DNA from: Tubulanus polymorphus
Taxonomy: Eukaryota > Animalia > Nemertea
Direction of reading: 5' to 3'
NCBI RefSeq assembly: GCF_964204645.1
Contig: NC_134031.1
Coordinates: 10,976,088 to 11,040,087, forward strand
DNA: 64,000 bases
In this document: positions 17,201 to 51,760 of the stretch, piece by piece
Position numbering within the stretch: the first letter of the stretch is position 1
Layout: each line of letters begins with the position of its first letter
Position numbers and translations under genes: made by a program
The notes under the pieces: generated by a model
What the model saw: only the letters and a program-made list of their open reading frames with translations
The model's database searches: none
Told to the model about the DNA's origin: nothing

Positions 17201-17335
17201 CTAATTCAATTATTTTATTACAAAATTCATTTGCTACATCTTCACCTCTAAAACAAATATATTGACTTAAATATAATTCAGAATAATTTGATTTTATATA
17301 AATTCCATAAGCAGCACCTCTTTGATGAATTCTTT
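14210..17335 (-). pseudogene. polB: Protein-primed DNA polymerase B containing an intein (copy 1)
   Basis: VRDHDH, FHNLSGYD, KLMNNSFYGKT, YFD-[intein]-TD, LNPFDDKR; many frameshifts. Confidence 0.92.
14615..15435 (-). mobile_element. Intein in PolB motif C with partially deleted LAGLIDADG endonuclease (decayed)
   Basis: YFD|SVTADTP ... DVTEDHS ... GFFMGDG ... VYDLSTDDGTF..LIPKN|TD; lacks the second LAGLIDADG block present in the 56755-57819 copy. Confidence 0.9.
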
Positions 17336-24267: not shown

Positions 24268-24454
24268 AGTAATAGGGGATTGTGGCTTTCATACCAAAGG
24301 TCGAAAGGTCGAGCTCGTAAAAATGAAAATAACAATAATTTCCATTTGAATTAGTCGCGCACACTCCTAATTCAACTGGAAATTATTGTTATTTTCATTT
24401 TTTACTCACTCACCCTTTCAACCTTTGATATGAAAGCCACATTCCCCTATTACT
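24268..24454. mobile_element. Palindromic MITE (~190 bp foldback)
   Basis: AGTAATAGGGGATTGTGGCTTTCATA... / ...TATGAAAGCCACATTCCCCTATTACT, arms ~88 bp. Confidence 0.75.
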
Positions 24455-24735
24455 CTTAAAATATTCATTTACATGGATAAAATATATATGAAAAACATAT
24501 AAAAGTAATTAGTAAATGGCTTTTTCAGGTCGGAGGTCGAGCTCTTATAAATAGATATATTTTAAACATTATTTCAATATTTATATTGTTACGAGTTAGA
24601 TTTTTAAACATTAAAAGTGTGAGTAAAGTGTGGTTGAAATAGTTCATATATATACACATGAATAACATATAAATGAATAACTTCTAAATGAATAAAATGT
24701 GTCAAATCAATTTAAAAAAAAAAATTAGTATTAAA

Positions 24736-27700
24736 ATGGAAGAAAATAAGTACTACTGTTCAACATGTAATATCAATATAGATAAATCCCAAAAATCAAG
24801 ACACAATAAAACTAAAACACATTTAGAGAATAAATTGGAATTATAATATGAAGATGATATATTAGAAACTAAATTAGATGAATTAAAGAATGAAAAAGAA
24901 ACATACAAATGTGATACATGTAATCAATCATTCAGTGATAAAAGATATTATAATGAACATTTAAAATCAAAAAGTCATATTAGAAATAAGAATAATGATA
25001 TTTTAGGTGAGGATTATTTTGATGAAGATAATGATAAGAAACAGATGACAATTAAAAGAATAAGAAATAAATTAAACAATAAAAGACCATACATGGAAGA
25101 TGTAAGAAATTATATTAATTCATTAGATAATAAAAAAGATATAGAAATAACCGAAGCATTTAAAAGTGATATTGGTCCAGCAGCTATTGAGTTTAAATTT
25201 CATAAAGGGAAAACATTAGAAGAAAATAAAATACATTTAGAAAATATGAAAAATATTATAAAAATAATAACTGATGTTGAATACCCTAAATTTAGTATAT
25301 CTTCTAAAGTAAAGTTTATAAAATCTGAAGATAAACCAATATATAATATAAATTCTCATTCACAACATATTATATCTAAACAACATATAGATGAAAAATT
25401 AGATAAATGTTATAATGAAGTAAAAACTAAAATAGAAGAGAAATATTTTGAAGGGTCTGGTTTAATATTTGATGAGATAATATTTATGACTTTACATGTT
25501 TATAACACAAAATATAATAAGTTAGCTAAATCAAAACCAATAGATGAAAATAATGTATCATATTATAAAGAACCAGATATTGAAGCATCAAGTTATATTA
25601 AACCACCATTTAAAACTAATGCTGTTATAAATGTACAAAATTTTGATGATAAATGTTTTCTATGGACAATTATTAGTTGCTTACATCAAACAGAAGATAT
25701 TACACATAGTTTTAGATTAACAAATTATAAACCATTTGAAAATAATTATAAGATAGATAAGTATCCAGTTAGAATTAAAAATATCCCAAAAATAGAAAGA
25801 GATGATAATTTAAGAATAAATGTATTTGATTTAATCAAATTACCAAAAACAAAAGGCAACAATATAAAATATTTTACATTAGAACCTTTATACCTATCAA
25901 AAGAATATGATTCAAATGATGTTATAGATATATTATATTATGAAAATCATTATATGTGGATTAAACAAATCGATTTATTCTTTAGAACAGAAAGTGATCA
26001 TCATCGTAAAATTTATCTATTGAAAATGTTTACATAGATTCAGTAATGAAAGTACATTATTAAATCATAAACAATTATGTGAAAATCATGATTATTGTAA
26101 ATTAGTTTTACCAAATGAAAAAGATAAAATATTAGAATTCAAAAAATATGATTACAAGAATAAAGTACCATTTGTAATATATGGAGATTTTGAATCATTA
26201 AATAAAGAATTAACTGATCAAGATAGAAAAGAAATATATTATAAAAGAAAGAAATTAAATTCTAATGAAAATGATTTTTCAGATGAACCACCAAAAACAA
26301 ATACAATTAAAAAGATTCATCAATCAGCTGCTGCTTTCGGGTTGTATATAAAATCTGATTATCCAGAACTAATTGAAAGTGAATATTATCATTATAGAAA
26401 TGAAAATGTTATCAATCATTTTTGTGACTTATTAATTGAATATGAAATAAGATTTAGTAAATTATTGAATACAAATTATAATGACAGAAGAAGATAAAGA
26501 AGAATTTGTTGCAGGTAAATGTTATTATTGTGAAAAGATATTTAATTATAAAGATAAAAAAGTAAGAGACCATGATCATTTGAACGGAAAGTTTAGAGGT
26601 GCAGCGCATGAGAATTGTAATTTGCAAGCAAAGAAAATACATTTTGTACCAGTTATATTTCATAATCTATCAGGATATGACGCACATTTATTTATCAAAC
26701 AGTTATGCCATTAAATAGAAGAAATCAATAATGAAATAGAAAGATTAAATTCAAATAGATCAAAAGATAAAATACCAACTTATAAATTTAAAATGTTAGC
26801 TAGAACATCTGAGAATTATATATCATTCCAATTTGGTTGCCTAAGATTTATAGATTCATATAGATTTTTAAATAGTTCATTGGATAACTTATCAAAATCA
26901 TTAGTTGATGATGAATTAAGAATATTAAAGCAACACTACCCAAATAATGATGATTTGCAATTAATGAGATATAAAGGTGCAATTCCATATTCTTTCTATA
27001 AAAATCATAATGATTTTAATATAACTGAATTATTGAAAGAACAATTCTATGATGAATTAAAAAATGAATATGTTAAAGATGAAGTATATAATAGAACATT
27101 GAATATTTGGAATCATTTTGGAATGAAAAATCATGGACAATTAGTAGATTCATATCTAAAATCAGATGTATTATTATTAACTGATATATTTGAAAGGTTT
27201 AGAGATGTAAACCTAAAATATTTCAATATTGATCCTTGTCACTGTTATTCTAGCCCAGGTTTAACATGGGATTGTGGATTAAAATTTACAGATATAAAAA
27301 TGGATTTGTTAACAAATATAGATCAATTATTATTATTTAAAAAATCTGTAAGAGGAGGAGTTTCAGGTGTATTAGGTGATAGATATTTCAATGTAAATGA
27401 TAACCCTGGATATAAGTTATTATATATAGATGCAAATAATTTGTATGGTTGGGCAATGATGGAACCACAACCTTATGGAGTATTTGAAATAAGTGAAGTT
27501 TTACAACATGAAAATAATGACAAATTTGATTGGAAGAAAAGAATCCTAGATATTGCAGATGATTCAGATACTGGTTACTTCTTTGTTGTAGACTAGGAAT
27601 ATCCTGAAAACATTAAATTTAAATCTAGAAATCTAGCATACTGTCCCGAACATAGAACTGTAACTCATGAAGAATTATCAAATTATCAAAAAAGAATTAA

Positions 27701-28709
27701 ACCGGAAAATCATATTCATACAGAAAAGTTAATGGTAACTCAAGAAGATAAATATAATTATGTAGTACATTATAGAATGTTAAAGTTTTATCTAAAACAA
27801 GGAATGATCCTAAAAAAAGTACATAGATATATTTCATTCAGTCAATCTAAATGGTTAGAAAAATATATAGATTTTAACACCAAACAGAGAACTGAAGCTA
27901 AAACTGATTTCGAAAAAGATTTCTTCAAGTTAATGAATAATGCATTCTATGGTAAGACTTGTGAAAATATTAGAAATAGAAATGATATTGAGTTAGTTAG
28001 TAATGGTAAAAGGATAAGGCATTTACAATCATATCCTAAGTTTTTAGGTAACAGAATATTTGATGAAAATTTAGCTGCAGTTAAAATGAGAAGAACTTCT
28101 ATGAAATTTAATAAACCAATTTATGTTGGTGCTTCAGTTTTAGAAATATCAAAGCTATTGATGTATGAATTCTATTATAATGTATTACAACCTCATTTTG
28201 GAGAAAAGCATATAGAAATTCTATACTTTGATACTGACAGTTACATATTAAAGATAAAAACTAATAACATAACTGATGATTTAAAAACATTAAAACATCA
28301 TTTTGATTTTAGTAACTATCCTAAAGATCATGAATTGTTTAGCAATGATAATAAAAAGCGACCCGGGAAGTTTAAGGATGAATTAGGTGGTGAAGAAATG
28401 ATTGAATTCATTGGTATAAGATCGAAAATGTATTCATATAAAACTAAAGAACATGAAGCTAAAAAGTTAAAAGGAATTACTAAAAGTGTAGTAGAAAATA
28501 ACATTCATTTCAAAGATTATATCAATTGTATATTCAATGAAGAAGTAAGAAAACATAAGATGAAATGTTTAAGATCAGAAGATCACGAAATGTTTATTGA
28601 AGAGATAGAAAAGGTTAGTTTGAATCCATTTGATGATAAAAGATATATTTTAGATGATGGAATTCATACAGTTGCATATGGTTGCAATTTAGATGAATCT
28701 AAAATTTAA
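24736..28709 (+). pseudogene. polB: Protein-primed DNA polymerase B, intein-free allele, with N-terminal Zn fingers and EndoVII-like domain
   Basis: YGDFES, VRDHDHLNGKFRGAAHENCN, FHNLSGYD, FIDS, YIDANNLYGWAM, KLMNNAFYGKT, YFDTDS, GIRSKMYS, KKLKG. Confidence 0.95.
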
Positions 28710-28790
28710 AAGAGAAGAAACAAAAGAGAACGAGATTATGAAAAGAATTCTAACGTGTTAATTCAGTTTTAATAAAAACATATATTATAA

Positions 28791-29144
28791 ATGGAGAGTA
28801 AACAAACAAACAGTGAGAACAACAAATTATTTCTAGATAGAATAAAAAATACTTCAAATGTCAAATCAGTAGATTATAAATTTAAGAAGTTAAAAGAATT
28901 AACAATCCATAAGAAATATCTAATTACAGATATTGTTACAGTTACTAACAAATATGGAGATAAATTAGTTATACACTTAGAATATGAAGGATTAAAAGGA
29001 AATACATATAAATTCAGAACATATTTACCAGATAGATTTCATAGATTATCAAGTGAAGATTTAGAAGAATTATGTTCTGGTGATTTCTATTTCGTATACA
29101 AAGGTAAGAATGAAAAAGGCCACCATGAAATAGATTTCGAATAA
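28791..29144 (+). CDS. Small conserved Polinton protein, possibly OB-fold ssDNA-binding
   Basis: Intact 117 aa ORF; three homologs elsewhere in the window. Confidence 0.65.
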   Translation: MESKQTNSENNKLFLDRIKNTSNVKSVDYKFKKLKELTIHKKYLITDIVTVTNKYGDKLVIHLEYEGLKGNTYKFRTYLPDRFHRLSSEDLEELCSGDFYFVYKGKNEKGHHEIDFE

Positions 29145-29158
29145 AATATGTAAAATAA

Positions 29159-29920
29159 ATGGTAGAATTAAAAGAATATAGAATACATGTTGATTCTAAA
29201 AAACTTACAAATTATAAATCTCATAATTTACAAGTACAATTAGATAGAGAATTTAAGAATTGTGTTGATTTATAATTAGTAAATGTAAGTTTATGTAATT
29301 CTTTTTATAATGTCTCGAGTAAAACTATTGATCATGATATTTTTTTAATTCATTTTAGAAATATAAATAAATGGTTTCATCTAATTTTAAAACCAGGATT
29401 ATATAATTTAGAAACATTAGCTCAAGAAATTAATAGAAGAGCACGGTTGAAAATTAGAAGTGAAGATAAATTTTTAATTAGATTTATAAAAAGTGATAGC
29501 ACAAATGAAATTAAAATAAAGTAACATGATGAAAGTCAACATTCATTTATGGTGAGAAAACCATTAGCTAAATTGCTAGGAATTGCACCAGATATTGTTA
29601 CAGGAAACGTAGATGGTAATTCAAATATAATGCCTTTTTCACACTTTTAAATTTATTGCAATTTAATTGATGCTACAAAAAAAAAATTTCGAAGCAACTA
29701 AAGACACAAGTTGTAATTCTATTATATTAAATATTATACCATTACAAAATGTTAAAAAATTTGGAACACAAATTAATTATAATTTAGCTGAATGTGATTT
29801 TAAACCTTGTATTTCACGATTTAACATTTTTAAATTAGAAATAGAAATCATAATGGTTATTTAATTGATTTGAATAACTTTCCTATAATTTATGAATTAA
29901 TTATAAGATGTAAAGAGTAA
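29159..29920 (+). pseudogene. Minor capsid (penton-like) protein
   Basis: IHVDS..., SLCNSFYNV, LKPGLYNL, IYCNLID, IIPL, LIDLNNFP; stops and frameshifts. Confidence 0.6.
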
Positions 29921-29936
29921 TTTTTTCACTATATAA

Positions 29937-30502
29937 ATGAATATAACTGTTGGATCGAGTATATGTTTTGGATTTGATTTTAAACATGAGAAAGAAATGA
30001 AATTTAACATTAATGATGTAATAACACATATTAAAAATATTGCATTTTCTAATGAAACAACATTTGAGTATGAAAAAACAATAGATAAAGAAACTTTTAA
30101 TGTAGAAAAGATAACCGAGTCTTTAAGATTTTATGAATTAGATGAAGATTTTATAATTGATGATATTAAAAGAATAATTACTGAAATATATGAAAATGAA
30201 CCTAATAATACTATAAATGTTGAAATAATCATAAATAAGATAACTAAATATTTTGAAGATAGTAATTTTTTTTATAAATTAATGAGTGATAATAAGTGGA
30301 TAATAACTGGTTTATATAATGGAGCATTATTATCAGTTGGAACTGTTGGTTATACAATGGTATAAACAAAAGTATTTAAAATGGGAAGTATTAATGTTGA
30401 TAGATTTGATATAAATGATATTTTTAAATTAACGTTAGCAGTTACTTTATCTAATTTAACTATTGATTATTTGGAAAAACAAAAATATATTCCTCCCATA
30501 TA
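29937..30502 (+). pseudogene. Uncharacterised protein with hydrophobic C-terminal part
   Basis: Homolog of the intact ORF 11549-12127; premature stop at 30363. Confidence 0.7.
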
Positions 30503-30527
30503 AATGCATAATTTTTTTGCTAAATAA

Positions 30528-30945
30528 ATGGCTTCTGCAATTATAACTATTTTAGGATCAGCAATTGTTAACGCTTTAGCATTTACTGGTGGTGGTTATT
30601 TATTTAAACATATTGATAAAAATGGTTCATTAACAGAATAAAAAAGACATAACTTAGCATTAGAAAAATATAATAAAGCTGCAGAAGAATACAGAGAAAA
30701 AAGACAAAACTATATGGATTATATTAACAAGGAATTATATAATCATAGAGATTTTCAATCAGTTGATGATGCAATGCGTTTATATAACGCAGTAACCAAT
30801 AAAGAAAATTTACATCTACATAAACCTACAATATCAGATTATTATACCCCAAGTAATGAACAGAAATAATATGAAATAATTTGGATTTTAGGGGGAACAG
30901 TTATTGTTATATTTGTTGCTTATAAATTTACTCAATTTTTTTGCT
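30528..30945 (+). pseudogene. Small membrane protein (MASAIITILGSAIVNALAFTGGGYLF...)
   Basis: TAAATG start, hydrophobic ends, coiled middle; homolog at 11104-11525. Confidence 0.7.
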
Positions 30946-30951
30946 AAATAA

Positions 30952-31386
30952 ATGGATGATAAAGTTGATAATATTGATATTATTCCTCATGATATAAATA
31001 AAACTAAATTGAAAATATATTTAGAAAAACAAATATTAGAATTTGAAAGTGACTTAAAGATAAAAAAGAAAAAATATTTAAAAAGTAAAATTATATATTA
31101 TCTTATTATCAGTGGTTCGGTTACAATTAGTTCTGTAATAACATTTCTAGCAATATTCAGTCCATTCACACCTTTAGCTATATCAATTGGCGTGTTAGGA
31201 TTATCATCAAGTGTATTAACCGGCATAAGTTCAAAATTAAATATAAATAGTAATAAAGAAAAAATTAAAACTAATATAAAAGAAATTAATAAATCAAGGA
31301 ATACACTAGATTATATAATAAATTTAAATGGTAATATTACAGTTGAAGAACAAGATAAATTATTAAAAGAATTAATAAATTATTAA
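30952..31386 (+). CDS. Two-TM membrane protein
   Basis: Intact 144 aa ORF with hydrophobic hairpin flanked by Lys-rich coils; homolog at 10755-11084. Confidence 0.75.
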   Translation: MDDKVDNIDIIPHDINKTKLKIYLEKQILEFESDLKIKKKKYLKSKIIYYLIISGSVTISSVITFLAIFSPFTPLAISIGVLGLSSSVLTGISSKLNINSNKEKIKTNIKEINKSRNTLDYIINLNGNITVEEQDKLLKELINY

Positions 31387-31402
31387 TTTTTTAATTATAT
31401 AA

Positions 31403-32708
31403 ATGGGGTTTCCAAAAGCTTTCCAATATAATAAATCAATTAAATATAATATTCCTGCTATAGATTTTAACAAAAATATTACATATAAAAATTTAGTTTT
31501 AAATTCATTGACTAATTTAGAAATTTATGTTACTGAATCACAGTTTTTTATTTCTAAAATGGAAAATATACATGTGAATACATATGAAGTTACTTTTACT
31601 CGAGATGAATATCATATGTATAAAGTAAAATGTAATATGAAATATTGGCAGAATCAATTAAATTTTGCTGTTTATTGTGCAACAACTGGTTGTGGTATAA
31701 GTTGGAATGATCATTTAAATAACTTAGATAAAAATTTGAATTATTCTGATTTAAAATTAATTCACACAATATTTAGATTTCACACATATTTTTCAAATCA
31801 GAATAATATTAAATGAATTAGAATGTCCTTTTCCCGGATCTAAATATTTCAAAGAATTGGATAATAATATTAATCTATGTAAGTTTTATAAAATATGTAA
31901 AGAATTTAATATAAATATTAATTCCTATTTTAGAGCGCATGGTAAATTGCAAGGTATTGGTGAAGAGTATGAAATAAAAAGAATTGATTATATGCATAGA
32001 ATTTCAGCTTATCATAATTATAAAATTGATAATAATAATGGTTGGGTTTATTTCATTTTAGAAAATTGTGAAGGTTTTACAAAATCGGGCATACAAAGAA
32101 TAAATCAATCTATTAGAACTTATTTGATATGTATTTTAGGTGCGCAAGTTGAAACAAGATCACCAATAGTTGGAAATGATAGTACTTCATTTGATGCGCA
32201 GAAACAATTCAAAGTATTATTTGAAGATTCCATTCATAATGATAAAAATAGATCGATTCCAGAAAACATTGTAAGATATCAAAATTACTTAGATAAATCA
32301 GATATTAGATTAAATTATTGTATAGGTCCTAATCTATTAATTATTTCTAATGATTTAGTATTAAAGATGGGAAATATAATTGGTTATAATAATCTAATTA
32401 AAACTGCAACAATAAATAATTCATTTGGATTAAATGATATAAATAAAAAGATAATTACTGCTCCAAAATTAATGGAAGGTGAAAAAAATAAAAAACATAT
32501 TCAATCAACAGAAACTAAAACTAATAATATTAAATTAAATAATGATTCTAAAATAAAAGATTACAATACATCAGAAAATATTAAAACTGATAATATTCAA
32601 CATGAAATAATTAAACTAAATGATGATAATAAATCCCATGAAAATGCTAAATTAGCTTTAACTTGTATAGGAATTGTTATAGGAGGAATATTATATTTTA
32701 AATTTTAA
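31403..32708 (+). pseudogene. Uncharacterised conserved protein with C-terminal TM anchor (frameshift near 31795)
   Basis: YWQNQLNFAVYCATTGCGISW, GFTKSGIQRINQSIR; homologous fragment at 55890-56238. Confidence 0.7.
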
Positions 32709-32723
32709 TTTTTTATTATATAA

Positions 32724-34410
32724 ATGGAAGAAGATATGCCAATGGATACTTTTGGTGACACCCCCGGTATAAGTGATGAACCACAACCTGATTTTAATGA
32801 AACTAATATCGATAATGATGATGGAGCAGCATATAATACTAATTTTGGTGAATATGATACTAGTGGGCCTATATTATATGATTATGATGAATTTAAAGAT
32901 GATACTGAAACAAGTGAAAAATTAATAGATTATTTAAGAACCCACGATGAGATAATAATTACAACTAGACCAAAAAGAAAAGATTTAATTAATAGATTAG
33001 AAAAAACAATTATTATACATAAAACATAGTGTAACAAATACAGTTATTGAAGAATTATTACCAAAAAATGTAACATATAACATTGAATCAGAAGATATTT
33101 CAGAACAAATTAGAAAAGATGATCCATTTTTCATAAATAATTTAGAATTTAAAAATGATTCATGGTTTTATAAAATTGAATTGAATAACGAAACTGTATC
33201 AATTCAATTATCTAAAATGGGACAAGAAGATCTGTACCATCCTGAAATGCGAGCAAGATCTACAATTGAAGGTTCAAAAGGCGGTAGAGAATTTCTCAAA
33301 ATTACATGGAATGCAATCGATAGAATAAATGAAGAAGAACCAATTCCTAAAATTGATATTAACAAATATTCACCATTTAAAAATCGAAATTCAAACCCTA
33401 CTGATTTTGATCCAGAAATGGAAGAATATGGAGATCGATCAGATAGATTAAGATCTTCAACACCAGAAACATCGAGAAGAGATATTCAACAAATTGATAA
33501 TGATTCAAATCAATTACAATTAGGAAAACGTTTAGATAACTTACTGGATAGAATGAATTCATTTGAAGAAGATATGATTAGTGTTTTAGATACGCCAGGT
33601 GCTGAAACTGGAATAAATCGAATACAATCTTTACTAGAAAAAGGATTACTTGATTTAACTGATGATGAATTGGAAGCATTTCCTGAACAAGCACGTAGAG
33701 AAATTAAAGGTATGCAAGAATCAGCTGGTGAAATTGCTAATATTAAGATGAGATTTTCTAAAATAACCATGTTAGAAAAAGAATTAACTAATGCAAATGA
33801 AGAATTAAAACAATTAGAATTAAATAGAGATCTTCAAGTAATAGAGGAAGCTGATTATGAAAGCAGAAAGTTAGCTTTAGAAAAAGAAATTGATGATTTA
33901 AAATATAACAAAGAATTTCAGGAAAAAGAAAGAGATATATTATTAAAATCATATGATCTTAATCATATTAAAAGATTAAAAGGTATTTTTAAAGATTTAA
34001 TAATAAAACCAGATTCTAAAATATCATTGAAAGACAGAATAAAATTGTTATTTAAATTAGAAGGAATCACATTTCTTTCAATTCTAACAGCTGTAACTAT
34101 GGTATTCACAACAATAGGTTTAGCTATATCAAGTTCATTAAAATTTACTCCTACTCCCAATAAACCGGATAAACCCCCAGATAATAATTCAATACAAGAT
34201 AAAGTTAGAGATGTTTTGAAAAAATTAGCAAAATATTTATGGGAACTATCTAAAAAATCTGCTGCAGGATTACCCGGTGTTATTGCATCAATTGTTGGTT
34301 TTATATTGAAATCTGCTGGGAATATTCTTAACTTTGCTGCTGAACATATTATTTTTAATTACAGTTGTAAGTGCAATTATTTTTGGGTTAGTTAATATGA
34401 TAAAGAATAA
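32724..34410 (+). pseudogene. Acidic/coiled-coil protein with hydrophobic C-terminal helices (putative membrane-active virion protein)
   Basis: ORFs 32724-33029 and 33181-34395; long coiled coil followed by GITFLSILTAVTMVFTTIGLAI and LPGVIASIVGFIL. Confidence 0.6.
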
Positions 34411-34433
34411 ATAATTAATTTTTTGTCAAATAA

Positions 34434-35690
34434 ATGAGTTGGAGTTATATAAGTCCTTCGAAGAATCATAGAATATCTAATGCTATTTAAGCAGAAAGAT
34501 CACATCATATAATTACTCATAATCCTTCTAATTTTAATCCCGATGAAACTTTATATGTTAGAATGCCTCGATTAACACAAAATACTTTTTTATGTTCCAA
34601 ATAGTAACTATTTATCAGCCGATATAAAAGTAACTGGTCATGATAATAATTATGTTGTCGATAATGTTGGGAGATATTTGATTAAAAAATTAGCTGTAAA
34701 GATTGGGCCAGAAACAGTTTTCTCATTAGATAATTATAATTTATTTATGCATTATAAAGATTTATGGTTAAACAAAAGAAAATAGAAATAATATGATATT
34801 TCAAGGCATCCAATCAGAAAACCAAAATGAATTAAGATCTGAAGCCAATAATGCAGTAGTAACTAATGCTGTAGATAATTTGATAAAAAAGATTTATGGA
34901 AGCAAATATAAAATTCCATTAGATTTTGAATTGATAAATAATAATGCGCCTTTATACAAATACGCAATTCAAGAAGATGTTATATTCGAAATAACATTTG
35001 CTCCTGTAAATGAAATTGTATTATCTAGCGTTAATAAAGATATGTGTTATGAATTATCGAATATATGTTTGGAATATAATACAGTAACTGATGAAAATAT
35101 TGCTAGCATAATTCAAACTCAATACAACCAAGGATTTTCATTATTATATGATTATATTGAAAAATTTAAAATTGTATCATATTGATGCCAATGATGAAAT
35201 AATTAATGAAAATATTAACTTCCCAAGAAGATCTATTAAAGGTATATTAATATTTTTTACCATTGCAACATATACTAATGGTGCAATAAATGTTGATAAT
35301 TATTATAATCCTGAAATATCAAAAGTAGAAATAACAATTGAAAGCATAGCAAATAAAACATTTCGTCAAGGAATGAGAATGATAGATCAATGGCCAGAAA
35401 TTAGAAAACATTTTACGAATGAAAAAGTAAAATCATTTGAAAATTGTTATATTAATCAAATTGATTATTATACCGGCAATAAATATGCATTATGGTTAGA
35501 TTTTAGAACAACAGAGGATAATTCATTACATGGTTCTGGGAAAAAACTACAAAATACTAAAGATGGAATACAATTATTCATGAAAAAGAAAAAAGGAGGC
35601 AAAAATTTCAAAATGCACATTTATATTATTATCTGACGCGCAATTTAATATTGTAAATTCACAATTAGATAGTATTATGTTTCAAGTGTT
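34434..35690 (+). pseudogene. Major capsid protein (double jelly-roll), type A
   Basis: ~420 codons; HNPS..P.ETLYVRMP, VDNVGR.LI, YKDLWL, YKIPLDF, L.NI.LEY, INFPRRSIKGIL, YYNPEI.KVEITIE, ALWLDFRT, HGSG; position in the structural block. Confidence 0.75.
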
Positions 35691-35734
35691 ATGAAATATT
35701 AAAATTTTAATTTTAATAAAAAATCTTATATTAA

Positions 35735-36900
35735 ATGGAAGGTGGAATATATGAAATACAAACTCCAAGTGAAATGATTCCAGATATATATTATATATTA
35801 CCTTATGATGAATACAGTAAGTATTTTGGAGAATACTTTAATCAATTTAAATATAGAATAAGTAAAATAGATAAGAATATTGAATCAAAAAAAGAAAATA
35901 ATATTGAACCTAAAATAGAAGATAAGAATGATATTGAATATAAAACAGAAGATAATATTGAAACTAAAATAGAAGATAGTAATAATATTAAAACTAAAAT
36001 AGAAGATGTAACTGCATCTACATCTTGTAATATACCCTCTACATATGATTTTGAATCAAAAAAAGATTATTATAATCCAAAATATTGTGATGTATGTTAG
36101 AAATATATATCATATAAAAATTGGGCATCACATAAGAAATCAAAGAAACATATAGAAAAAGAAAAGAATAATAATGATAATAATATATCTGGTAATAATA
36201 TAATAGATAATATCATAGATAATGTTAATACAATTGAAACAAATGATACCATAGATAATATAACAGATAATGTTGATAAAATTGAAACTAATGATAATGA
36301 AACGATTGATGATTCTAAAAAACATTGTAACATTTGTGATTTAGATATTTCTAAAAGTAATTTTTCTAAACATAAAAAATCTCAAGCACATATCGAAAAT
36401 GAAAGGAAGTTAGAAGAAATAGAAAGAAATAAAATGTGCCAATATTGTAATAAAAAAAATTGAACCTGTTTATAAAAATACTCATTATAAATCAAAATTG
36501 CATCTAATAAATGTTTATAAAATAATGGGTATGATACCATTGTTAAATAACCCAGAGAAATATATCAAATATTTTAATCCTAAAACTAACCAATATTATA
36601 TATTCTATAAGTTGTTATTTGATAAATTATTAGCTTATGCAGAAGATAAACCTGAACAAATCTATTTTTTATTATATTTTAGAAAAATAGATTTAAGTTA
36701 TCTAATAAAACATTTTGGATAGCAATTTGATTTTGATAATGATGATTTTGATGAATACTATAATGAAAAAGCTAATATACCTACTAATTATCATTCAAAG
36801 ATGACTCGACTAAAACTAATAAATCTACCTAAGACTTTTGATGAATTAGATATAAACAGAGATGATTTTATAAATGTATTAGAAACAAAATTAGAATAAT
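35735..36900 (+). pseudogene. Zn-finger protein with (NIETKIED)-like repeats
   Basis: YCDVC..H.KSKKH, CNIC..HKKSQAH fingers; internal stop at 36098. Confidence 0.55.
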
Positions 36901-36933
36901 TATTATAAAACTTTTAATTTTTTTAATAATTTT

Positions 36934-37270
36934 TATATCTATATACTAGACGTACGTAAGAATCTTGGTAAGAATCCAAGAATCCAAGAAATCTTACTTT
37001 CTTACTCGTACGTCTAGTACATAGATATATATAATAGTTTTCATAAAAATTAAAAACATAAAATTTTTAATCTAAGTATAGAAATAGTTATAATATAATC
37101 TATTTTTATTTTTATTAAGAGAAAACATATAATTTATTCATTTTTATATAATTCATTTAATAATTTATATATCTATGTACTAGACGTACGAGTAAGAATC
37201 CAAGAATTCTTACTTTCTTACTTTCTTAGCAAGAATCTTGGATTCTTACGTACGTCTAGTATACAGAAAT
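36934..37270. repeat. Pair of hairpins between convergent genes
   Basis: TACTAGACGTACG...CGTACGTCTAGTA stems at 36934-37029 and 37168-37270. Confidence 0.8.
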
Positions 37271-37305
37271 ATAAATTAGTTTGTATAATATTCCAAATAA
37301 GGATT

Positions 37306-37917
37306 TTATTTTATAAATTTATATTCATAGGGAAATTGAAGCCGCAGTAATAATTTTGAACCTTTACTATTCTTTAATTTATTCATATATTCATCATGTA
37401 ATTTAGTAGTTATAATTTGATTTTCTTCCAATGATTGTTGCATAGATTTTCTATCTTTATTGTAGAATAAAACTAAAAATCTTATATTCTCCCTAAAGTG
37501 TTTAACAATTGAATTATATTTTTGATTTAAAACCCATGTTGTTATCCCAAAATTTCTTCCAGAGAAAGCTAGATAACATAACTCACTTTCTCTTACTTTT
37601 GAATCATGTAAATTTGCACAATCATCTATAATGAATAATGTATTTGATCCTTTATAAATATCTAATGCTATTTTTATACAATTATCTAAATTTTCTTTTA
37701 CTGTTTTAGGATCTAATATAATAAAATTTTTTATCTTAACTATATCTCTATTATATGTTTTATTCATTTCATAAGTAGGACAGAATAATATTATATTATC
37801 AAAATGATTCTTATATATAGTTTCTAACAAATCTAATATGAAATGTGTTTTACCACAATTGGTTACTCCAGTAACTAACATATTATGCGGTTCAAATATA
37901 AATAAATCTTTATTCAT
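37306..37917 (-). CDS. A32/FtsK-like DNA packaging ATPase
   Basis: Walker A GVTNCGKT, Walker B FIIDD, SGR.FGIT...NQ, R.N; intact ORF. Confidence 0.92.
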   Translation of the reverse strand: MNKDLFIFEPHNMLVTGVTNCGKTHFILDLLETIYKNHFDNIILFCPTYEMNKTYNRDIVKIKNFIILDPKTVKENLDNCIKIALDIYKGSNTLFIIDDCANLHDSKVRESELCYLAFSGRNFGITTWVLNQKYNSIVKHFRENIRFLVLFYNKDRKSMQQSLEENQIITTKLHDEYMNKLKNSKGSKLLLRLQFPYEYKFIK

Positions 37918-38997
37918 TTATTCTTTTAATTTTACTAGATAAAATCCATTCATTAAATTTATCATCATATCCTTTATATTTCACCAAAGAATACTTTTTT
38001 CCTTTAAGAGTTTTTGTTTTCAATACTTTTTCTATTTTGTATTCTATTTCATCTGGATTTGGTACAAGTGATAATTCTTGTTCATAGAAATAACCTAATA
38101 TTTCTTAACATCTTTTATATCTTCTAATTTATAAACAAAAGGTTTAGTTAATATTATCTTTTTATTCTTGAATATTTCTTCAGTAAAATTAGGGGTATAA
38201 CCTTTATAAAATGTTTTTCTATATTTAGATATTCTAACGTGTTGTCCAATTTTAAATTTAGGTTCACCGAAATCATGTGTAACAAACGCACCATATAAAT
38301 TATTCCAAACTATTTCTGAATTATCTTCTTTTCTAGCTTGTATAGGTTTCATATTTATAGAACTATGTTTAGAATTATTATAACCTTTCACTAAATCATC
38401 TAACACATCGATATATTTATATGTTTCATAAGCAGTATAATATTTCCACATTCTAGTTTTCAATGTTTTATTAAATCTTTCTATAATAGATGCTTTTTTA
38501 TCTGAATGCGTTGAAGAATATTCTACATCGTTATCAGATAATAGTTTTTAAAAATGTTTATTATAGAATTCTTTACCTTCATCAAATTGTATCTTACCTG
38601 GAATAGCTTCTTTAAATATTGATTTAAAAGCATTTGTCGCTTCTATTCCAGTTTTATTTTTGATTGGAATTGACCATGCGTATCTACTGAATATATCTAT
38701 AACATATAATATCCAGAAATATCCTTTGTTGTATTCTTCTAAATTCTTCATGTCAATTAAATCTGCTTGCCATTGTTGATCAATATATGAAATCATAACT
38801 TTCCTTGTTAAATAAGTTTTATCCATTTTCTTGTGGATTTGATATGTTGGTTGATTTTGTAGCCATGATTTTAATTCACTATATTTTATATAACCATTAT
38901 CAGATTTAATTTTACCCCATAATTCTGAAACGCTAGAATATGATACTTCACTTTCTGGGTTATAATATAAATCTCTTAAATATTGTTCTTTTTTCAT
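37918..38997 (-). pseudogene. rve integrase with C-terminal chromodomain
   Basis: QQWQADLIDM, VIDIFSRYAW, IQFDEGKEF, KASIIERFNKTLK, YKIEKVL..VKYKGY..KFNEW. Confidence 0.92.
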
Positions 38998-39003
38998 CTT
39001 ATT

Positions 39004-39890
39004 TTAATCAATTAATAATAATTTAGATTTAGTTTCAATGACTTTATGATTTGACTTATTTTCTGGTATAATAGGTTTATTATCATTGGAATCATTATTG
39101 TTATAATAAGATTTATACTTATATTTATATATTACACCGGATAATATAGTAATTGTGATTAACCCAATTGTAATATATAAGTAATTATTTCTTCCAGCAA
39201 TAGAAGAATCAGATGGATTATTATTTGAATCAATATCAGATAATTTCTGTGATTCATTTATATCAGCTAATTTCTTTTTCTTAGCTCTTTTAAATTCTGC
39301 AGATCTTTTTCCCAACTCCTTTGACCATCATTTTTGTTTTTCAGTTCTAGGCTTCTTCTCAATATCATCACTCATTTATTTTAGTTAATTTTTGTTCTGA
39401 TTCATTTTCTGTTTCGCCGTTTGGTTGTAGTACAATCCTAATTGGAATGAAGCGTAACCAACCCATTTTTGTAATTCAGTCATAACTAGGTAGTCATTTT
39501 TCAAATCACTATATAATTTATTTTCAGCATCAATTGGTATTAACCGTTTACAAAATTTTGAATAACATTTGACAATACCATCTGAAATAGAATCATTTAT
39601 TCTAGCTAATCTAGCTTCTTCATAAATCTTAAAATATTTTATTACTTTATCTGGTTTCATAGAGTATAGTTCTTGAAAAGTAATGGTCTTAGTTAAAAAC
39701 TCCTTAGATTTCCCGCCAGCAATTAGTAACTCAAGATGGTGTTTACAATATAAATAGTATTCATAATCTATATTGTTATTAACTTGAATATTATTTTCAA
39801 TTTTGGTCGGAATATCCTTATTATCACTAATGCCCAAATCATCTAATGTTTTTCAATATCTGTATTATTCTTACCCGATTTCTTTGACAT
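39004..39890 (-). pseudogene. Two conserved accessory genes (starts 39890 and 39375)
   Basis: Homologs of 7440-8339 and 60985-61890; both start at TAAATG. Confidence 0.7.
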
Positions 39891-40168
39891 TTATATTAGA
39901 GAAAAAAAGCGAAAAAAATATTATAAGTATTATAAAATGATATTAGTATCTCTTTAGGTTAATACTAGCTTAGTTAAGTTAAAGAATTCTAGTATTAGTT
40001 ATTGTTTTTTAGTATTTTTTATTTGTGATATAAAGTATTCTCTTTTGAAAAGAATTGTAAAAGAAAATATTAAAAAAAAACAATAACTAATACTAGCTTC
40101 GTTCAGTTAAAGAATTTTAGTATTAGTTATTGTTTTTTAAATATTTTTTATTTAAATTCTATTATTCT

Positions 40169-40836
40169 TTAACCACTCATTAAAGATTCAACGTATTGTT
40201 CATTATTTGGATCATTATTCCATAATTCAATAAATTTCTTTGCCTTTGTTAACTGTTCTAAATATAACTGTAAATCTAGTTTATTAGATTTGATTTTATT
40301 TTCTTTCTTTTCAAGAGGTCTTAGATTCTTCCAATTCCAAATAAGTTTTTTATTGTGTTCAACATTCATGTTAAATTTAGATATCGGTAACACGTGATCA
40401 ATATGAAAATAATCTCCATAATTATCTATATTCATTTGACTATCGAATTGAAATATAATCCGTGATTTGAGAAATTCATCTGTACAACCCAACAAATTAG
40501 ATAGTGTTTCTGAATGTGTTTCCTTGTTGAATAATTGTGTTAATCTAGATCTCAAGCATTGTTTCAATCTAAAATTAAGATCTGTTTGATATCTTTCTCT
40601 CATATATTCTGTCATATAATCATTATAGCTTCTCTATTATCTTCTCGATATTGTTGAGTATATAGTTTAAAACAAGTTTTACAGCAATATTGAAAACCAT
40701 CTTTGCTAATCTTACGCTTACTAAATTCTGTTATAGCTAATTTATCTAATTCACATTTAGAGCACTTCTTGTAGTATATATTTATGACACCAGTGTTATT
40801 TGTAATATTGATAGTTTGTGGTTGTTCTGGTTCCAT
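40169..40836 (-). pseudogene. HNH endonuclease of large-DNA-virus type with N-terminal Zn finger
   Basis: CSKC..K...EF....SKDG....CKTC; NFRL...LRSRL, LLGC, NYG..FHIDHVLPIS.F, WKNLRPL...EN..KSNK; one frameshift. Confidence 0.75.
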
Positions 40837-40974
40837 TTATTATACATATTTTTTTACTAAATTGGTTAATATTTTAGAATCCTCTTCCATTTCTTCGACT
40901 AACGTCATCCTTTTTCATTCCTCGCTGCTTTTGATAAGTCGTTTCGATTCCTTGATATCTAAATCATACCACTG

Positions 40975-41272
40975 GGCAAAAGCGCGCATACAGGCGCGCT
41001 TTTGCTTAATGCGCATGCGCTAATCATAATTATATATTCATTCTGTAAAATAGAAACAACCGGCATAAAATATCAAAACGCGTTCGCATTAGGAAAATGC
41101 GCGCATATAGGCGCGCTTTTGCTTAATGCGCATGCGCTAATCATGATTATATATTCATTCTGTAAATTCTGTAAAATAGAAACAACCGACATAAAATATC
41201 AAAACGTGTTCGCATTAGGCAAAAGCGCGCATACAGGCGCGCTTTTGCTTAATGCGCATGCGCTAATCATAA
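40975..41272. repeat. GC-rich tandem repeat, 117-126 bp unit, ~2.5 copies
   Basis: GCGCGCATAYAGGCGCGCTTTTGCTTAATGCGCATGCGCTAATCAT at ~40982, 41098, 41226. Confidence 0.85.
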
Positions 41273-41963
41273 TTGAAACGAATCATAATTGAAACGACTG
41301 AACATAAAAATTCACCAAACAGATTTAAACAATACATTATACAAGTTGTTCAGTCGTTTCTTCCAATACATCATTTGATTTCTATAAATACAATTTATAA
41401 TTACAAACATTTTTTCAATTGCCGGTAAATATTTAACTACATCAACAAATGTTAAACTTAATCATTGGAGTCTTAATGTTTTTGAAATTCTTATATAGTT
41501 TCTTCTTCGATCTTTTGTGATTCTTGTGCTTCTACGTCAATTTCTATTGGTTCGATATCCATTGCTGTTGATTCCTCAGTCAGAAAGAGTATCTTGAGTT
41601 TCTCTATCACTTCTTGATGCGTATGACGTTTTATTAATCTAAAAGATATTAGTTGTAACTCTAATTATCTAAAAGATAAACTAAATACACTTAAATATAT
41701 CTAAAGGTTTCATATTTAATAGCCCTAATAACTACAAAAAACTGTACTTACATTTAGATTTAGAATTGTAAACTATAAACTCCTAATTGCGTTTCGAGAG
41801 AGAATATCCTAAGCGTTATGTTGTATCATCTATTCAGTTCCGGTGCGATTTCTAGAATGAACACGTCTGCGATTATGACACGTCATCTATTCAATTCCGG
41901 TTCGCTTTCTAGAATGATATAATGTATGTGTCTGCAGTGTATTATGACTCATATGTCTCGGTG

Positions 41964-42440
41964 TCATAGTAACGGCTGTGACAGCTGTAGTTTATAGACT
42001 TGTTCAATAGTCTTTACATACGAGTAAGGGGGTAGAGCAAATCTCCCAAAGTCTTTATTCAGCGTGGGGTGTCTCAGGTATATGTAAAATGACTCCTGAA
42101 CACCTCGTTCGAACCACCGGGGTTCCACCGTCAAAATGTCTGTGTTGCCTATATCAACAGAGTGATCAGGATTGTCAGTATGGATGTGTTGGGATACCTC
42201 TGACGTCATAGAGCTAGGTCGACGGTGTTCACCAAAGCGGGCTCTCAAGGAGCGCTCAGTTTCACCAACATAACTCGCATCGCAAGATTCACATTTAACA
42301 TGGTACACCGGTCCTTTAATGCGTTCTTTAGGTACCGGGTCCTTCGGTCTAACTAATAACTGGCGTAACGTGTTCACCGGTTTAAAATACACACTAATGT
42401 TGTAGTCTTTCATCACCCGTCTGATTTGTTCAGACATGCC
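41964..42440 (-). pseudogene. Penelope-like retroelement GIY-YIG endonuclease fragment, cut by the type-B Polinton
   Basis: GMSEQIRR, VYFKP..TLR, GPVYHVKCESCDASYVGETERSL..R..EH, R...E..YI....P.LN.D.G. Confidence 0.88.
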
Positions 42441-42498
42441 AGTAGTTATATAGGGTCACTTTGGGACCGAGTGAGAAGTGAGGAGCAGTGAGGAGCAA

Positions 42499-42739: not shown

Positions 42740-43577
42740 ATGGATTCACCAAGCGGCCGAAGCACATGTAGTTTAGAAATATGTAGTTCTCCTAAAAAAG
42801 CGAAGCTTTCACCCGCATATAGGAAAAGGAAACCGGTTCATCTCAAACTTAATTTCGGTAAGTCTATTTCTGTTTCGAGACAATATTTCGTAAAATGATG
42901 TATGTATGTTCTAAATACTCAATTTCGTAACTTTATTTTCTATAGACTCAATCGTTAATGATAACGCCGTCGATACGCCTCAGTCAATGAAAACCGTCAC
43001 ATCGTCAGATGGTCAACCCGATCCTCATTATTTAGGACAACTCGTTTACGCGTGCGTGAAAACATGGCAGGGTTCAAAACGTATCGATCTCAGGACATAC
43101 GAGTGCTGCGACCGGAAGCACCAGTTATACCCGACTAAAAACGGTATCGCGTTAGATTTGCAAGAGTGGGTACATATCGACTACTGTAAATCCGATATCG
43201 AACACGAAATTGAGCGAGTCAAACAACAAGCGGGATATGTGGGAGTTATGACTATCGGTCGTTCGAACTTTATTAAAATCTATCGTTCTAGTCATAATAG
43301 TCGTGTATACATCGATATACGGTTCTATATACTATGCGATGCGAAAGGCGAAACCGTACCTTCTAGAAAAGGTGTAAAATTATCTCTCTCTCAGTGGAAG
43401 AAATTAAAAGACATTAATTTTAGCGACGATGTACCCGAACTATCCGATATGAAACCGTGTTGGTACGAACAAAGTCATCAAAATCAAGAATATAGATGCG
43501 CATACTGCGCAAAGGACACTAGCGGAGTTCGTAATGCTCCAGAATATTCCGCATACGCTCCCAGTAAGAATAAATGA
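42740..43577 (+). CDS. Tandem PC4-like ssDNA-binding/coactivator protein, two exons (42740-42857, 42946-43577)
   Basis: RIDLRTY..PTKNGIAL..QEW and YIDIRFY..PSRKGVKLSLSQWKKL; GTAAGT...TTTTCTATAG intron joins a 39 aa basic exon in frame. Confidence 0.8.
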
Positions 43578-44013
43578 ATACGTTTAATTAACGGTCTAAT
43601 AATATGTATTGTTTTTCTAACTTTATTATCCACGATTAAATGAAAATAAACGTGTGTCAATAGAAGTCAATTGTCTTTGTCATTGTTTCGTCGGTCATTC
43701 ATTCCCTTAAAGTTCAGTCATTTCGATATGTCGACTGTCTGTAGCATGATTCCATCAATTGCCTATCAATCAATCCTCTCATTGTTGGCCTTATCTACAC
43801 GATCAAATTCCATCCTTTAGTGTAATCCAAAGCGACTATGATAATTAACATATCAATAAACGAATAACGATGTTCAATTTAACATAATATTTGATAAACT
43901 TTATTATATTAGTAAAGGATAAATATTCTATATAAATAGTAAATGTACAAAAAAATTCATTATTTAAATTCAAAAAAATAGTGGTGACTAGAGGAGAATA
44001 ATAAAACGCGTGT

Positions 44014-46676
44014 CTAAAAACCGTAGGGAAGCGTGTTAAATCTGTTCGTTGGATCAAAAGCCCTTTTAGTGTATACGGCGCGATATATTTTTCGCTCGTC
44101 TCTATTAAAAATGGAACATTTTTTGATGTCTCGATTTATCTTGTTTGGAATGGAAACGTACAAATGATCGTATTTTTCACCGACTATAATATCAACCATT
44201 GATTTAAAGTTGACTATTTGTTTATTTCTAAAATTCAAATTAATTCCTTTCACTTTGCATTCCGATGAGAATTTATTGTCACGCGGACTGAAAACACGGA
44301 ATGCATAGTTTTTCGGACCGGCCGAAACGAATTCCGAAATATAGGCACCATCTCCGTATTTATCTGCCAACTCATCGGTCATATCCCCTAAAAAGTTTCC
44401 AGTTGGCGGATCCCATTGATCAGGTTTAACGGTGTAAATGATTGAGTCGGTATCCGTGTAAAGGGTTCGATCCCCTAGTTTCTCCATATAACTATAGAGA
44501 ATTAGTCGAGCGCGGCTAAGGCGACGCTAGTTTTACCGGAGGATTCGACAAATTCGTCGCGTTTTCTGTAGTGCACCCTTAACACCTCTTCGTTACACAA
44601 CAGTAAATCTTGTATCTCCAAACTATCGTCTAAAAGCATGCTGTACATTTCACCGGGGTCTGAAATATATTTAGCAGTGGTTTTGTTTTCATTTTGACCG
44701 AGTTTACCCCACATGCTATTTAAACATAGTTTGGCGACAGTTCGCATGCCCTTCGCCTTCTTTATGTTATTTTCTTCGAGACGGATACCCTCGCGCTCGA
44801 AATAATCGGATAGAAATTGGTCTTTTTCGGCGCGAGTCATATCGGGAGATGGCCACCCGCTAGCTTCGGTTTTTACTTTTAGAAATTTTCCTATATAGTC
44901 TGCAAATAATCCGGTTTCGCTACGTTCCCAATTCCAAATTTCGAATATACCGATAATACGGTATCCCAATTCAACGGCTTTTTGGATCTCTAAACTGACC
45001 CACGTTCCGGTAATAGCACGTTCGTCTTCCGAGTGGCGACACCTTTCGCGTTGATTACTATCTTCAGCGCACGAGCGACACAAAGGAAAGGATAATTTGC
45101 CATTGGCTCTGTATGGAAGGATGGGTAAATATAAGCCCCGAGGTGGTAAAATTCGGCATTTAATCAACCCGTAATAATCTTTGATATCACCGAAATTTTC
45201 AGTTATAACTGTTGGGTGACCTATTGGATAGCTACAACGACTATTAACGTACGGGTATAGCGAACATATGTCAATTAGCCTTCACCTTTTTGTCCAGCTC
45301 GGGGATTCCACACTTGCCGGTGGGGACTCCTGTCGCCTGGTGCAATGCGAGAGCGGCTTCTCGTTGCGGTGATTTTTCGCATTTACGAATTATGTTATAA
45401 CGAGGGTCATTATCGGCTCGCGCCTTCGCCACGACTAGCGCCCTCGCTAGGCATAAATCGTCATCATTATTTATACTGATGACCGATTTCTTTGTTTTTC
45501 GGAACTGTTCAAAGTCAGTCGTTATCCGCTTTTGTCTAGCACCACCGAGAGGCATCCTAATGAGTGTACAATGAAAGATCAGCCCGTCCAAAGATAGATC
45601 TTCGTTAGACTGAAGAACACTAACAATACGCTCGAGTAAATAATCGATAGTGATTTCTTCTAGAGGTACGTAGAAGTATTCGATATTTCTTTGAAGATTT
45701 TCATGTTCTATCGAAATCCTCAACATATCGGTTGGCCGGGCGTCTAACATCTCACTCATTGCCGCTAGGATGTTACTTAAATACTCGCGGAGTATTGTTT
45801 CGTTATCGCGCGCTGTTACGGTATCGTCCTCTTCCTTATTACTATCATCGTCCTTGTCATTGTTGGTAATCACAATAGCCTTGAACCATTCAGTATTCAT
45901 GTTGAATTTACGGCTATGCTGCGTTCCGGTCTGTAAAATAAATATAAAATTGTTGAAAAACAATCAGGTTTTTTTTTTTTACACGATCTATCGAATTTGT
46001 TCGATAATACTTACTCTAACTAACTTAATATTCCCTCTAATAATTTCATCGGGACTATTATTATTATGACACAGACGTTTTTGTGTCGAATGCTGGTCAT
46101 TGTCGTCATCGTCCCTGGGTCGTTTCTGAGCCGTAGAACTACAATGTTCCCTATGTATTTTCAGATCGTTTATTTCGGTAAAAGATCTTGCGCAATTAGA
46201 ACATGAGAATTCCTTCGCAACCGGTCGTCGTGGTTTACACGATCTCATGTGCCGCTTAAGATTATCTTTTCGAGCCGATCTTTTACCGCAATTATTACAC
46301 TGAAATACAAATTAAATACATATAAATACAAAACGTATAACGTATATATTATGATCATGATAATATATATATATATATGTCTGAGGATTCTTACCGTGAA
46401 AGCGGTTGACGTAGATGGTTGAGGAGATCACCGAACATTTGATATAGGTTGCTTATCGTCTGGTTGGTCAGAAGTCTGAGCTATCGGTGGCACTCTATCC
46501 TGCGCTACCTGCCGATTATTACAATTTTTCATATGCCGCACTAAATTATCTTTTCTGGCGTGTGCTTTACCGCACTCCAGACATTTGAAACCCTTCTTAC
46601 CCTCATGCATCATCTCATGACGTTTGAGATTGAATTTCGAGGCGAAGGTAGCGTTACAAATGCTGCACGAATACAT
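44014..46676 (-). pseudogene. polB: Protein-primed PolB, type B, with spliced Zn-finger exons and large internal deletion
   Basis: DICSLYPY, KLCLNSMWGK, LYTDTDS, FVSAGPKNY, KVKG; N-terminal NDDDLCLARAL joined directly to motif A near 45275; introns 45931-46014 and 46300-46394. Confidence 0.9.
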
Positions 46677-46695
46677 GATCTATAAAAGAGAACAT

Positions 46696-47229
46696 CTTTG
46701 TTACTTTAAAAAAATATCCAAACCACAAATTTTATAATTGAATATTTTATCAAACCTCTTAGTATTTTCCTATTAAAAATGTACAAACCACATTTTCTAA
46801 AACTTGAAAAATTGTCAAACCGGGTTTTGTAAAATTCTAAACTTTATCATTACGATATAGTTTTTACGGATTTCGTTTTAAACAAACTTTGTTACTTTAA
46901 AAAATATCCAAACCACAAATTTTATAATTGAATATTTTATCAAACCTCTTAGTATTTTCCTATTAAAAATGTACAAACCACATTTTCTAAAACTTGAAAA
47001 ATTGTCAAACCGGGTTTTGTAAAATTCTAAACTTTATCATTACGATATAGTTTTTACGGATTTCGTTTTAAACAAACTTTGTTACTTTAAAAAATATCCA
47101 AACCACAAATTTTATAATTGAATATTTTATCAAACCTCTTAGTATTTTCCTATTAAAAATGTACAAACCACATTTTCTAAAACTTGAAAAATTGTCAAAC
47201 CTGGTTTTGTAAAATTCTAAACTTTATCA
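46696..47229. repeat. 190 bp tandem repeat, ~2.8 near-identical copies, between divergent PolB and ATPase genes
   Basis: Unit starts CTTTGTTACTTTAAAA at 46696, 46887, 47077. Confidence 0.92.
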
Positions 47230-47304
47230 ATTTTTGAAATTCAAAATTATTAAAAGTCGGCTACTACGGATAATCAAAAACCCTAAAACCCTAAAACCAC
47301 TAAG

Positions 47305-47955: not shown

Positions 47956-47989
47956 AAGAAAGCTAAGGTCTACTATTTATAAAAGGAAG

Positions 47990-51758: not shown

Positions 51759-51760
51759 AT

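Follow-up and report, generated by a model that had tools for sequence, protein, structure and literature searches.

Nearly every gene of a decayed Polinton-like virus (PLV) embedded in the genome of the nemertean Tubulanus polymorphus starts at TAAATG, frequently downstream of a T-rich patch, and by analogy with poxviruses this two-part signal would, with a probability that we put at about 0.7, constitute a leaderless late promoter recognised by the RNA polymerase of a large cytoplasmic DNA virus that infects the same cell and transcribes in the poxvirus manner. The element, termed type A here, occupies about 16 kb (24736-40839) of the window, a 64,000-nucleotide (nt) stretch of contig NC_134031.1 (positions 10,976,088 to 11,040,087, forward strand, RefSeq assembly GCF_964204645.1), which also holds other type-A copies and a classical Maverick, termed type B. 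The motif is real, conserved over a broad lineage and apparently unreported; no prior report of a pox-type promoter motif in Polintons was found in a literature search that covered few subscription papers and no supplements, and the words 'promoter', 'motif' and 'TAAAT' are absent from the main text of PMC11296320, as is 'promoter' from that of PMC11131425.

A preliminary description of this stretch had placed TAAATG at 13 of 15 type-A starts, and all 13 positions were verified, together with the two departures, TAAAATG at the PolB start (ATG at 24736) and TAAGATG at the integrase start (38997). The trinucleotide TAA accounts for 43 of 540 trinucleotides (8%) upstream of the focal starts, which gives 13 of 15 a binomial P of about 5e-13. 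Internal ATGs, 24 of 391 of which follow TAA, make a biased control, since no stop codon can directly precede an ATG that lies in frame within a gene; this comparison was discarded, and we therefore rely on the composition control and on relatives of the element. The description had allowed that overlapping upstream TAA stops, or AT content alone, might account for the enrichment. Neither does: an upstream stop coincides with the motif at 0 of 13 starts in the focal copy, where the starts follow gaps of 4-86 nt or lie inside the end of the integrase gene, while AT content is countered by the composition control and by the lack of any GC trend in the relatives. The T tract noted before many starts is likewise present, with TTTTT then TAA at 7 of 14 starts and at 0 of 391 other ATGs; an A tract stands in its place upstream of six focal starts. 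Elsewhere in the window, other type-A copies bear the motif at 10 of 12 homology-placed starts, the exceptions being 12127 (TTAATG) and an integrase near 59093, and the recurrences listed earlier at 12900, 20701, 60063 and 60985 are all genuine sites, the TAA at 60063 being the stop codon of the upstream gene. As also stated at the outset, type B lacks TAAATG (0 of 13 correctly placed starts), and type A shows no sign of introns in alignment to intact relatives, with which it is colinear and from which only stops and frameshifts set it apart.

The relatives carry the argument beyond a single genome. An ATPase alignment of 50 sequences (295 homologs at E 1e-10) led to 165 metagenomic relatives, of which the best 80 (L001-L080; ATPase identity 37-79%) were used, the first ATG following each stop being uniformly taken as the start. 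The long loci separate into two classes, with TAAATG at 14/15, 10/10 and 7/7 starts in the one and at 0/12 and 0/14 in the other. Across the relatives the motif is an element-wide switch: with open reading frames (ORFs) grouped into families, PolB and antisense shadow families left out and 10 near-duplicate loci dropped (70 of 80 remaining), in elements whose ATPase starts with it, it also opens 100 of 111 of the other genes, and in elements with a motif-less ATPase it opens 13 of 77. The fraction of motif-bearing starts shows no trend with GC (rho 0.06, 41 loci), and TAAATG is invariant in PLVs over 20-45% GC, with the base at -4 free. In motif-bearing loci the trinucleotide before the ATG is TAA at 154, TAG at 1 and TGA at 0 of 169 starts. 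These 154 TAAATG starts comprise 15 that lie on an upstream stop, 11 inside an upstream gene, 50 after a gap, 25 without a family gene within 150 nt, and 53 in head-to-head pairs; head-to-head gaps are as small as 4 nt, in which case the two genes share a single CATTTAAATG palindrome. An in-frame TAA at positions -6 to -21 occurs at only 1 to 16 of the 154. On a quick ATPase tree (66 loci plus three rows from the window) the motif label needs 9 changes, against 19.6 when shuffled, so the motif is clustered on the tree, yet was gained or lost several times.

A second element emerges upstream of the same 154 starts, where T reaches 86, 68 and 73% at -14, -13 and -12, and A 49 and 58% at -17 and -16. 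Vaccinia late promoters combine TAAAT(G) over the start codon with a conserved T ten bases upstream of TAAAT, that is at -13, and intermediate promoters combine TAAA with an A-rich upstream part (PMC11980589). A weight matrix covering -18 to -11 and trained on 86 starts from a distant clade tells the 23 starts in the window apart from the remaining 111 TAAATG sites (P 7e-8) and, within the element, 13 starts from 37 sites (P 8e-4), the upstream T element being present at 16 of the 23 starts and 26 of the 111 other sites. As far as sequence can tell, type A has both elements of the poxvirus late promoter, TAAAT at the ATG and the T some ten bases before it. A GC-richer sister clade (L022/L023/L080) bears a two-part motif of another kind, TTC(T/G)-N7-9-TATA, just upstream of the ATG (11 of 26 starts, against a background of 0.8%); the form TTCT-N7-9-TATA occurs at 11 of 26 starts there, compared with 0 of 111 in two TAAATG groups, and in AT-rich clades (L017-L021, L030, L077) the starts are rich in TATA. 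No clade is well matched by the mimivirus late motif as published. EMALE types bear different motifs, which have been taken as specificity for different giant viruses (PMC8547959), and a sister clade with a different motif is as expected if helpers differ.

In poxviruses the polymerase initiates within TAAAT and, by slippage, puts a poly(A) head on the transcript (PMC4542343, PMC6211774). If type A follows vaccinia in this, the T-rich patch near -14 would be the binding site of late factors, and the polymerase would start on AAA and slip, producing an untemplated poly(A) head that runs into the AUG; each gene would be its own leaderless unit, and two genes could share a few bases head to head. 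A helper's late promoter would account for the fixed distance between the two elements, for the very short spacers that genes share and for the exclusive use of TAA. By further analogy with mavirus-type systems and Gezel-14T, in which silence until helper infection is followed by replication and packaging (PMC8547959, 10.1101/2025.10.09.676808, 10.1101/2022.07.28.501842), the integrated copy may stay silent until the cell is infected by a helper, then be copied by the protein-primed PolB (pPolB) that it encodes and packaged in a capsid likewise its own, to the helper's cost. A precedent exists in the PLVs of entomopoxvirus occlusion bodies (PMC11296320), and no RNA polymerase or transcription factor was matched among the genes scanned in type A and its relatives. 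The earlier proposal that type A is transcribed by the polymerase of a cytoplasmic large DNA virus therefore gains from the failure of the stop-overlap and AT-content explanations, from the second pox element and from sister clades that swap motifs as a block; its poxvirus component is held more tentatively, since we place a poxvirus or close relative as the helper somewhat short of an even chance.

Comparison with described systems sharpens both the likeness and its limits. The late promoter of poxviruses (vaccinia, mpox and salmon gill poxvirus) has the same TAAAT over the ATG and a T-rich element about ten bases upstream, and the intermediate promoters resemble the A-rich class of type A (PMC11980589, PMC4542343). 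Type A differs in bearing the motif on nearly all genes of a 16-kb element that has no RNA polymerase match, and in a T peak at -14 rather than -13, while a start site within the motif and a poly(A) head would carry over to it by analogy. Mavirus and EMALEs, Sputnik and Zamilon, and Gezel-14T are likewise small double-jelly-roll viruses with one motif before most genes and motifs that differ by clade (PMC8547959, PMC11464507, 10.1101/2022.07.28.501842), and mavirus shares the integrase and pPolB. These virophage-type systems use the CroV TCTA motif, the mimivirus late motif or AAAATTGA, and reside in protists, whereas type A has a pox-type motif and probably an animal host; in type A, moreover, a protease was not found and gene-end hairpins are absent. 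Such hairpins seldom occur in any PLV clade (three TAAATG groups, 2 of 128), against 21 of 202 in the control of large viruses described below, and they do not distinguish clades with the motif from those without it. The PLVs associated with entomopoxviruses are also Polinton-like and are proposed parasites of poxviruses in animals, but as described they have a cysteine protease, lack an RVE integrase and in part carry primase-helicases (PMC11296320).

The helper need not be a poxvirus. The same mechanism served by another nucleocytovirus, for example an iridovirus-like or mimivirus-like one whose late promoter consists of a T-tract and TATATAAATG, is somewhat less probable than the poxvirus but makes up the rest of the preferred reading. 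As a control we assembled 81 IMG/VR loci with delta-like PolB (80 of at least 579 confirmed, plus one), in which TAAATG stands at 100 of 1018 ORFs and the T peak is absent (45% at -14); the bases before the ATG vary there (TAT, ATA, ATT, TAA and AAA about equal, below 30% GC), whereas PLVs keep TAAATG invariant across their GC range with -4 free. This favours a poxvirus, but is not decisive. A number of observations weigh against the poxvirus helper, or against a borrowed late promoter altogether. The 10% figure discriminates little alone, as poxviruses too use TAAATG on only part of their genes (PMC4542343), and no poxvirus locus turned up that could have acted as a positive control. The long motif form in IMG/VR opens an ORF at 35 of 120 matches, many in giant-virus-like contigs where T-tract plus TA(A/T)ATAAATG stands at gene starts, so the motif is not exclusive to poxviruses. 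Two large-virus loci have TAAATG at 5 of 7 (L138) and 5 of 11 (L230) starts; L138, a large-virus-like IMG/VR contig of 161,868 bases that also has head-to-head genes 32 nt apart, owes one of its five to its selection site. The sister-clade motif does not fit the published mimivirus late spacing (exact core at 1 of 26), the depletion of the early terminator of poxviruses, TTTTTNT, is slight (9 where 16.6 would be expected, and 22 where 33.4 would), and PolB and often the integrase depart from the motif, which opens the integrase in 10 of 14 motif-bearing loci. Several conserved genes lack an assigned function, and a helper was not found. A viral contig set contained no relative of the ATPase or of the PolB P0121, and Pfam PolB had no match in the two viral records searched.

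The inteins also bear on the helper. The catalytic YFD/TD motif of two type-A PolBs (56758-57810 and about 14590-15620, both on the minus strand) contains an intein with a LAGLIDADG endonuclease, the acquisition of which, according to the preliminary description, transcription by a large virus would explain. Six pPolB inteins form one clade (98) among the inteins of large PolBs and topoisomerases, with the host P0123 being of the other pPolB type. The nearest relatives outside that clade, up to about 40% identical, sit in large PolBs of non-pox viruses, which again counts against a poxvirus and suits a helper with a delta-like polymerase; two large intein-bearing PolBs that were examined resemble polymerase delta most and stand well apart from vaccinia E9. 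The intein is therefore rejected as evidence for a poxvirus helper and is a weak sign of any large-virus link, being absent from the focal copy and of a kind, homing-endonuclease and intein insertions in Polinton pPolBs, already noted (PMC11071308).

Explanations that dispense with a large-virus helper fare less well. That the signal is a nuclear promoter of host RNA polymerase II, or a translation signal in which an in-frame TAA shields the AUG from upstream reading, appears improbable, as TAG and TGA do not replace TAA, the T peak keeps a fixed distance from the ATG, the starts of head-to-head genes lie 4-6 nt apart, type B of the same genome is without the motif, and T at -3 is a poor start context in animals. 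Nuclear expression would nonetheless suit an element that is integrated in nuclear DNA with a chromodomain on its integrase, the more so as no helper came to light, and a related PLV of algae was originally isolated as a lytic virus of the nucleus (10.64898/2026.06.19.733378). It is still less probable that the element family, or another cytoplasmic plasmid-like element, supplies a pox-like polymerase or factor of its own. The yeast plasmids pGKL1/2 set the example, with a pPolB, their own RNA polymerase, a TAAAN initiator and slippage that adds untemplated poly(A) heads, and several type-A genes without assignment might in principle encode such a system; pGKL1/2 differ from type A, however, in that RNA polymerase and a capping enzyme, in lacking a capsid and in not integrating (PMC6211774). 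In type A polymerase, capping enzyme and helicase were unmatched, no unassigned ORF exceeds about 500 amino acids (aa) in the focal copy, L001, L026 or L079, and the unassigned genes are mostly membrane-protein-like and common to clades lacking the motif. Least probable of all is that TAAATG joins genes by stop-restart along a polycistronic RNA, or simply follows from spacers being AT-rich. An upstream stop does coincide at 15 of 154 relatives' starts and at 60063 in the window; it does so at none of the 13 focal starts, 53 of the 154 are head to head without an upstream same-strand gene, and GC shows no trend, so that this explanation is already largely refuted.

The gene set of type A comprises a pPolB, an RVE integrase, an A32 ATPase, a double jelly-roll capsid protein, an HNH-like gene and about ten genes without an assigned family (Pfam matches: Pox_A32, E 3e-10; DNA_pol_B_2, E 7e-12; rve and chromo). 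Most genes are broken by stops and frameshifts, yet the element is colinear with intact relatives. For the capsid, a model was built from a 10-row alignment for the intact relative L001 (415 aa, 70% identical to the gene at 34434; pLDDT 71, pTM 0.76), which is predicted to be a double jelly roll closest to PBCV-1 Vp54 (E 1e-13, TM 0.55), with mavirus and Sputnik below it at TM 0.47-0.49; its Atlas neighbours carry the Capsid_N and DJR families. PDB profile searches with the ATPase, capsid and ~430-aa protein alignments returned nothing useful. Five or six conserved proteins (29937-34395, 39004-39375) have hydrophobic segments and, one doubtful case apart, no family match above the cut-off, and these segments suggest that the type-A particle may contain a membrane. 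L001 also encodes a deoxynucleoside kinase (10340-10981; Pfam dNK, E 2e-31) that starts at TAAATG, and the sole viral relative of this kinase (37%) lies on a contig without the motif at all but one of the listed starts. The loci L026 (138-4205) and L079 (14-3919) pair the same capsid module with either of two pPolB types, implying that replication genes are swapped within the lineage.

An adenain-like cysteine protease had no Pfam match in type A, and the type-B protease as query has no hit at E 0.01 in type A or in L001-L080, most relatives being partial contigs; type A thereby fails one defining feature of Maverick group 1. The N-terminal part of the type-B capsid likewise has no match in type A or its relatives, and no inverted match, as of terminal inverted repeats, was found between the flanks of the focal copy, which is decayed and nested. 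The likeliest home of type A, compared by description, would be among a few PLVs from animals that fall outside Maverick groups 1 and 2 (Polinton-3_NV/N1A_NV; Aquintovirus-like ATPases of octocorals, hydrozoans and bivalves). These are integrated in animals, have pPolB and RVE integrase, and have a capsid unlike that of Maverick (PMC11296320; 10.64898/2026.06.19.733378); the text consulted describes no promoter for them. The term 'virophage-like Polinton', put as a question in the preliminary description, is apt insofar as type A is a PLV whose motif behaves as a virophage's borrowed late promoter; by taxonomy it is no virophage, given the protease not found and a capsid fold nearer Vp54.

In the focal copy, nine TAAATG genes follow the pPolB on the plus strand. 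The pPolB itself (24736-28709, +; start TAAAATG, placed by homology) has N-terminal zinc fingers and an endonuclease VII domain, contains stops and one frameshift, and lacks the intein. Three genes belong to the A-tract class: a 117-aa gene (28791-29144; TAAATG 28788-28793), a broken ~250-aa gene (29159-29920; TAAATG 29156-29161) that, from its size and place, probably encodes a minor capsid protein, and a broken gene for a zinc-finger and repeat protein (35735 to about 36900; TAAATG 35732-35737). Between the last two lie those of the T-tract class, namely a gene with one internal stop (29937-30503; TAAATG 29934-29939), a conserved ~139-aa protein with a hydrophobic N-terminus and internal stops (30528-30947; TAAATG 30525-30530), an intact 144-aa protein with a weak, doubtful match to SLATT-like two-membrane-helix proteins (30952-31386; TAAATG 30949-30954), a frameshifted, conserved ~430-aa protein with a C-terminal hydrophobic anchor and no family match (31403-32708; TAAATG 31400-31405), a frameshifted, long helical protein with C-terminal hydrophobic segments (32724-34395; TAAATG 32721-32726) and the broken major capsid protein gene (34434 to about 35690; TAAATG 34431-34436). 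A non-coding region with nested inverted repeats (36850-37290) separates these from the convergent minus-strand genes: the intact 203-aa A32-like packaging ATPase (37306-37920), whose TAAATG (37920-37915) lies inside the integrase gene end; the RVE integrase with chromodomain and internal stops (37910-38997; start TAAGATG); a small conserved protein with one membrane helix (39004-39378; TAAATG 39378-39373); a conserved ~200-aa protein of unassigned function (39385-39893; TAAATG 39893-39888, T-tract class); and an HNH/endonuclease VII-like gene (40169-40839; TAAATG 40839-40834). Long imperfect palindromes and short repeats occupy non-coding sequence at 24268-24454, 36850-37290, 39960-40163 and 60654-60950, and in relatives the corresponding site after the ATPase carries other palindromic repeats.

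Elsewhere in the window, a second, fragmented type-A copy (7094-17400, mostly minus strand) has TAAATG at 7094, 7786, 11084, 11525 and 12900 and a PolB with intein remnants, and further type-A fragments (55891-64000) have TAAATG at 60063, 60985, 61523 and 63753 and a PolB fragment on the minus strand. Type B (42987-53957) is a classical Maverick with PolB, ATPase, integrase, capsid and protease, and it also encodes homologs of the TATA-binding protein (49169-49696; Pfam TBP, E 1e-34) and of the PC4 coactivator (42987-43577; E 2e-18), which are host-type polymerase II factors, in contrast to type A. Tandem arrays lie at 40970-41292 (three units of ~120 nt) and, within type B, at 46706-47275 (three 190-nt units), and a long four-base microsatellite at 53970-54500. 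The viral copies are flanked by piggyBac transposase fragments and two Penelope-like GIY-YIG fragments (3504-5011, 6204-7073, 41967-42455), and it is these neighbours, with the classical Maverick, that point to an animal host; among 120 relatives listed for the Penelope-like protein, the single one with an organism name comes from an amphioxus (47%).

No Maverick-Polinton virions have been observed (10.64898/2026.06.19.733378), and how animal Polintons are expressed, and why their particles go unseen, is an open question to which a helper-specific promoter would give a direct answer for one lineage. If the signal is such a promoter, endogenous viruses that respond to a helper, demonstrated to date in protists, would occur in animals as well, where they might blunt large-virus infection, and promoter class could sort thousands of annotated Polintons by likely helper. 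A broader picture, which we hold with some doubt and clearly below even odds, is that this PLV lineage represents endogenous virophages of animals, silent until activated by the late machinery of undescribed poxvirus relatives and switching its promoter as a block with the helper. Were this so, the motif would betray poxvirus-like viruses in many invertebrate hosts where none are known.

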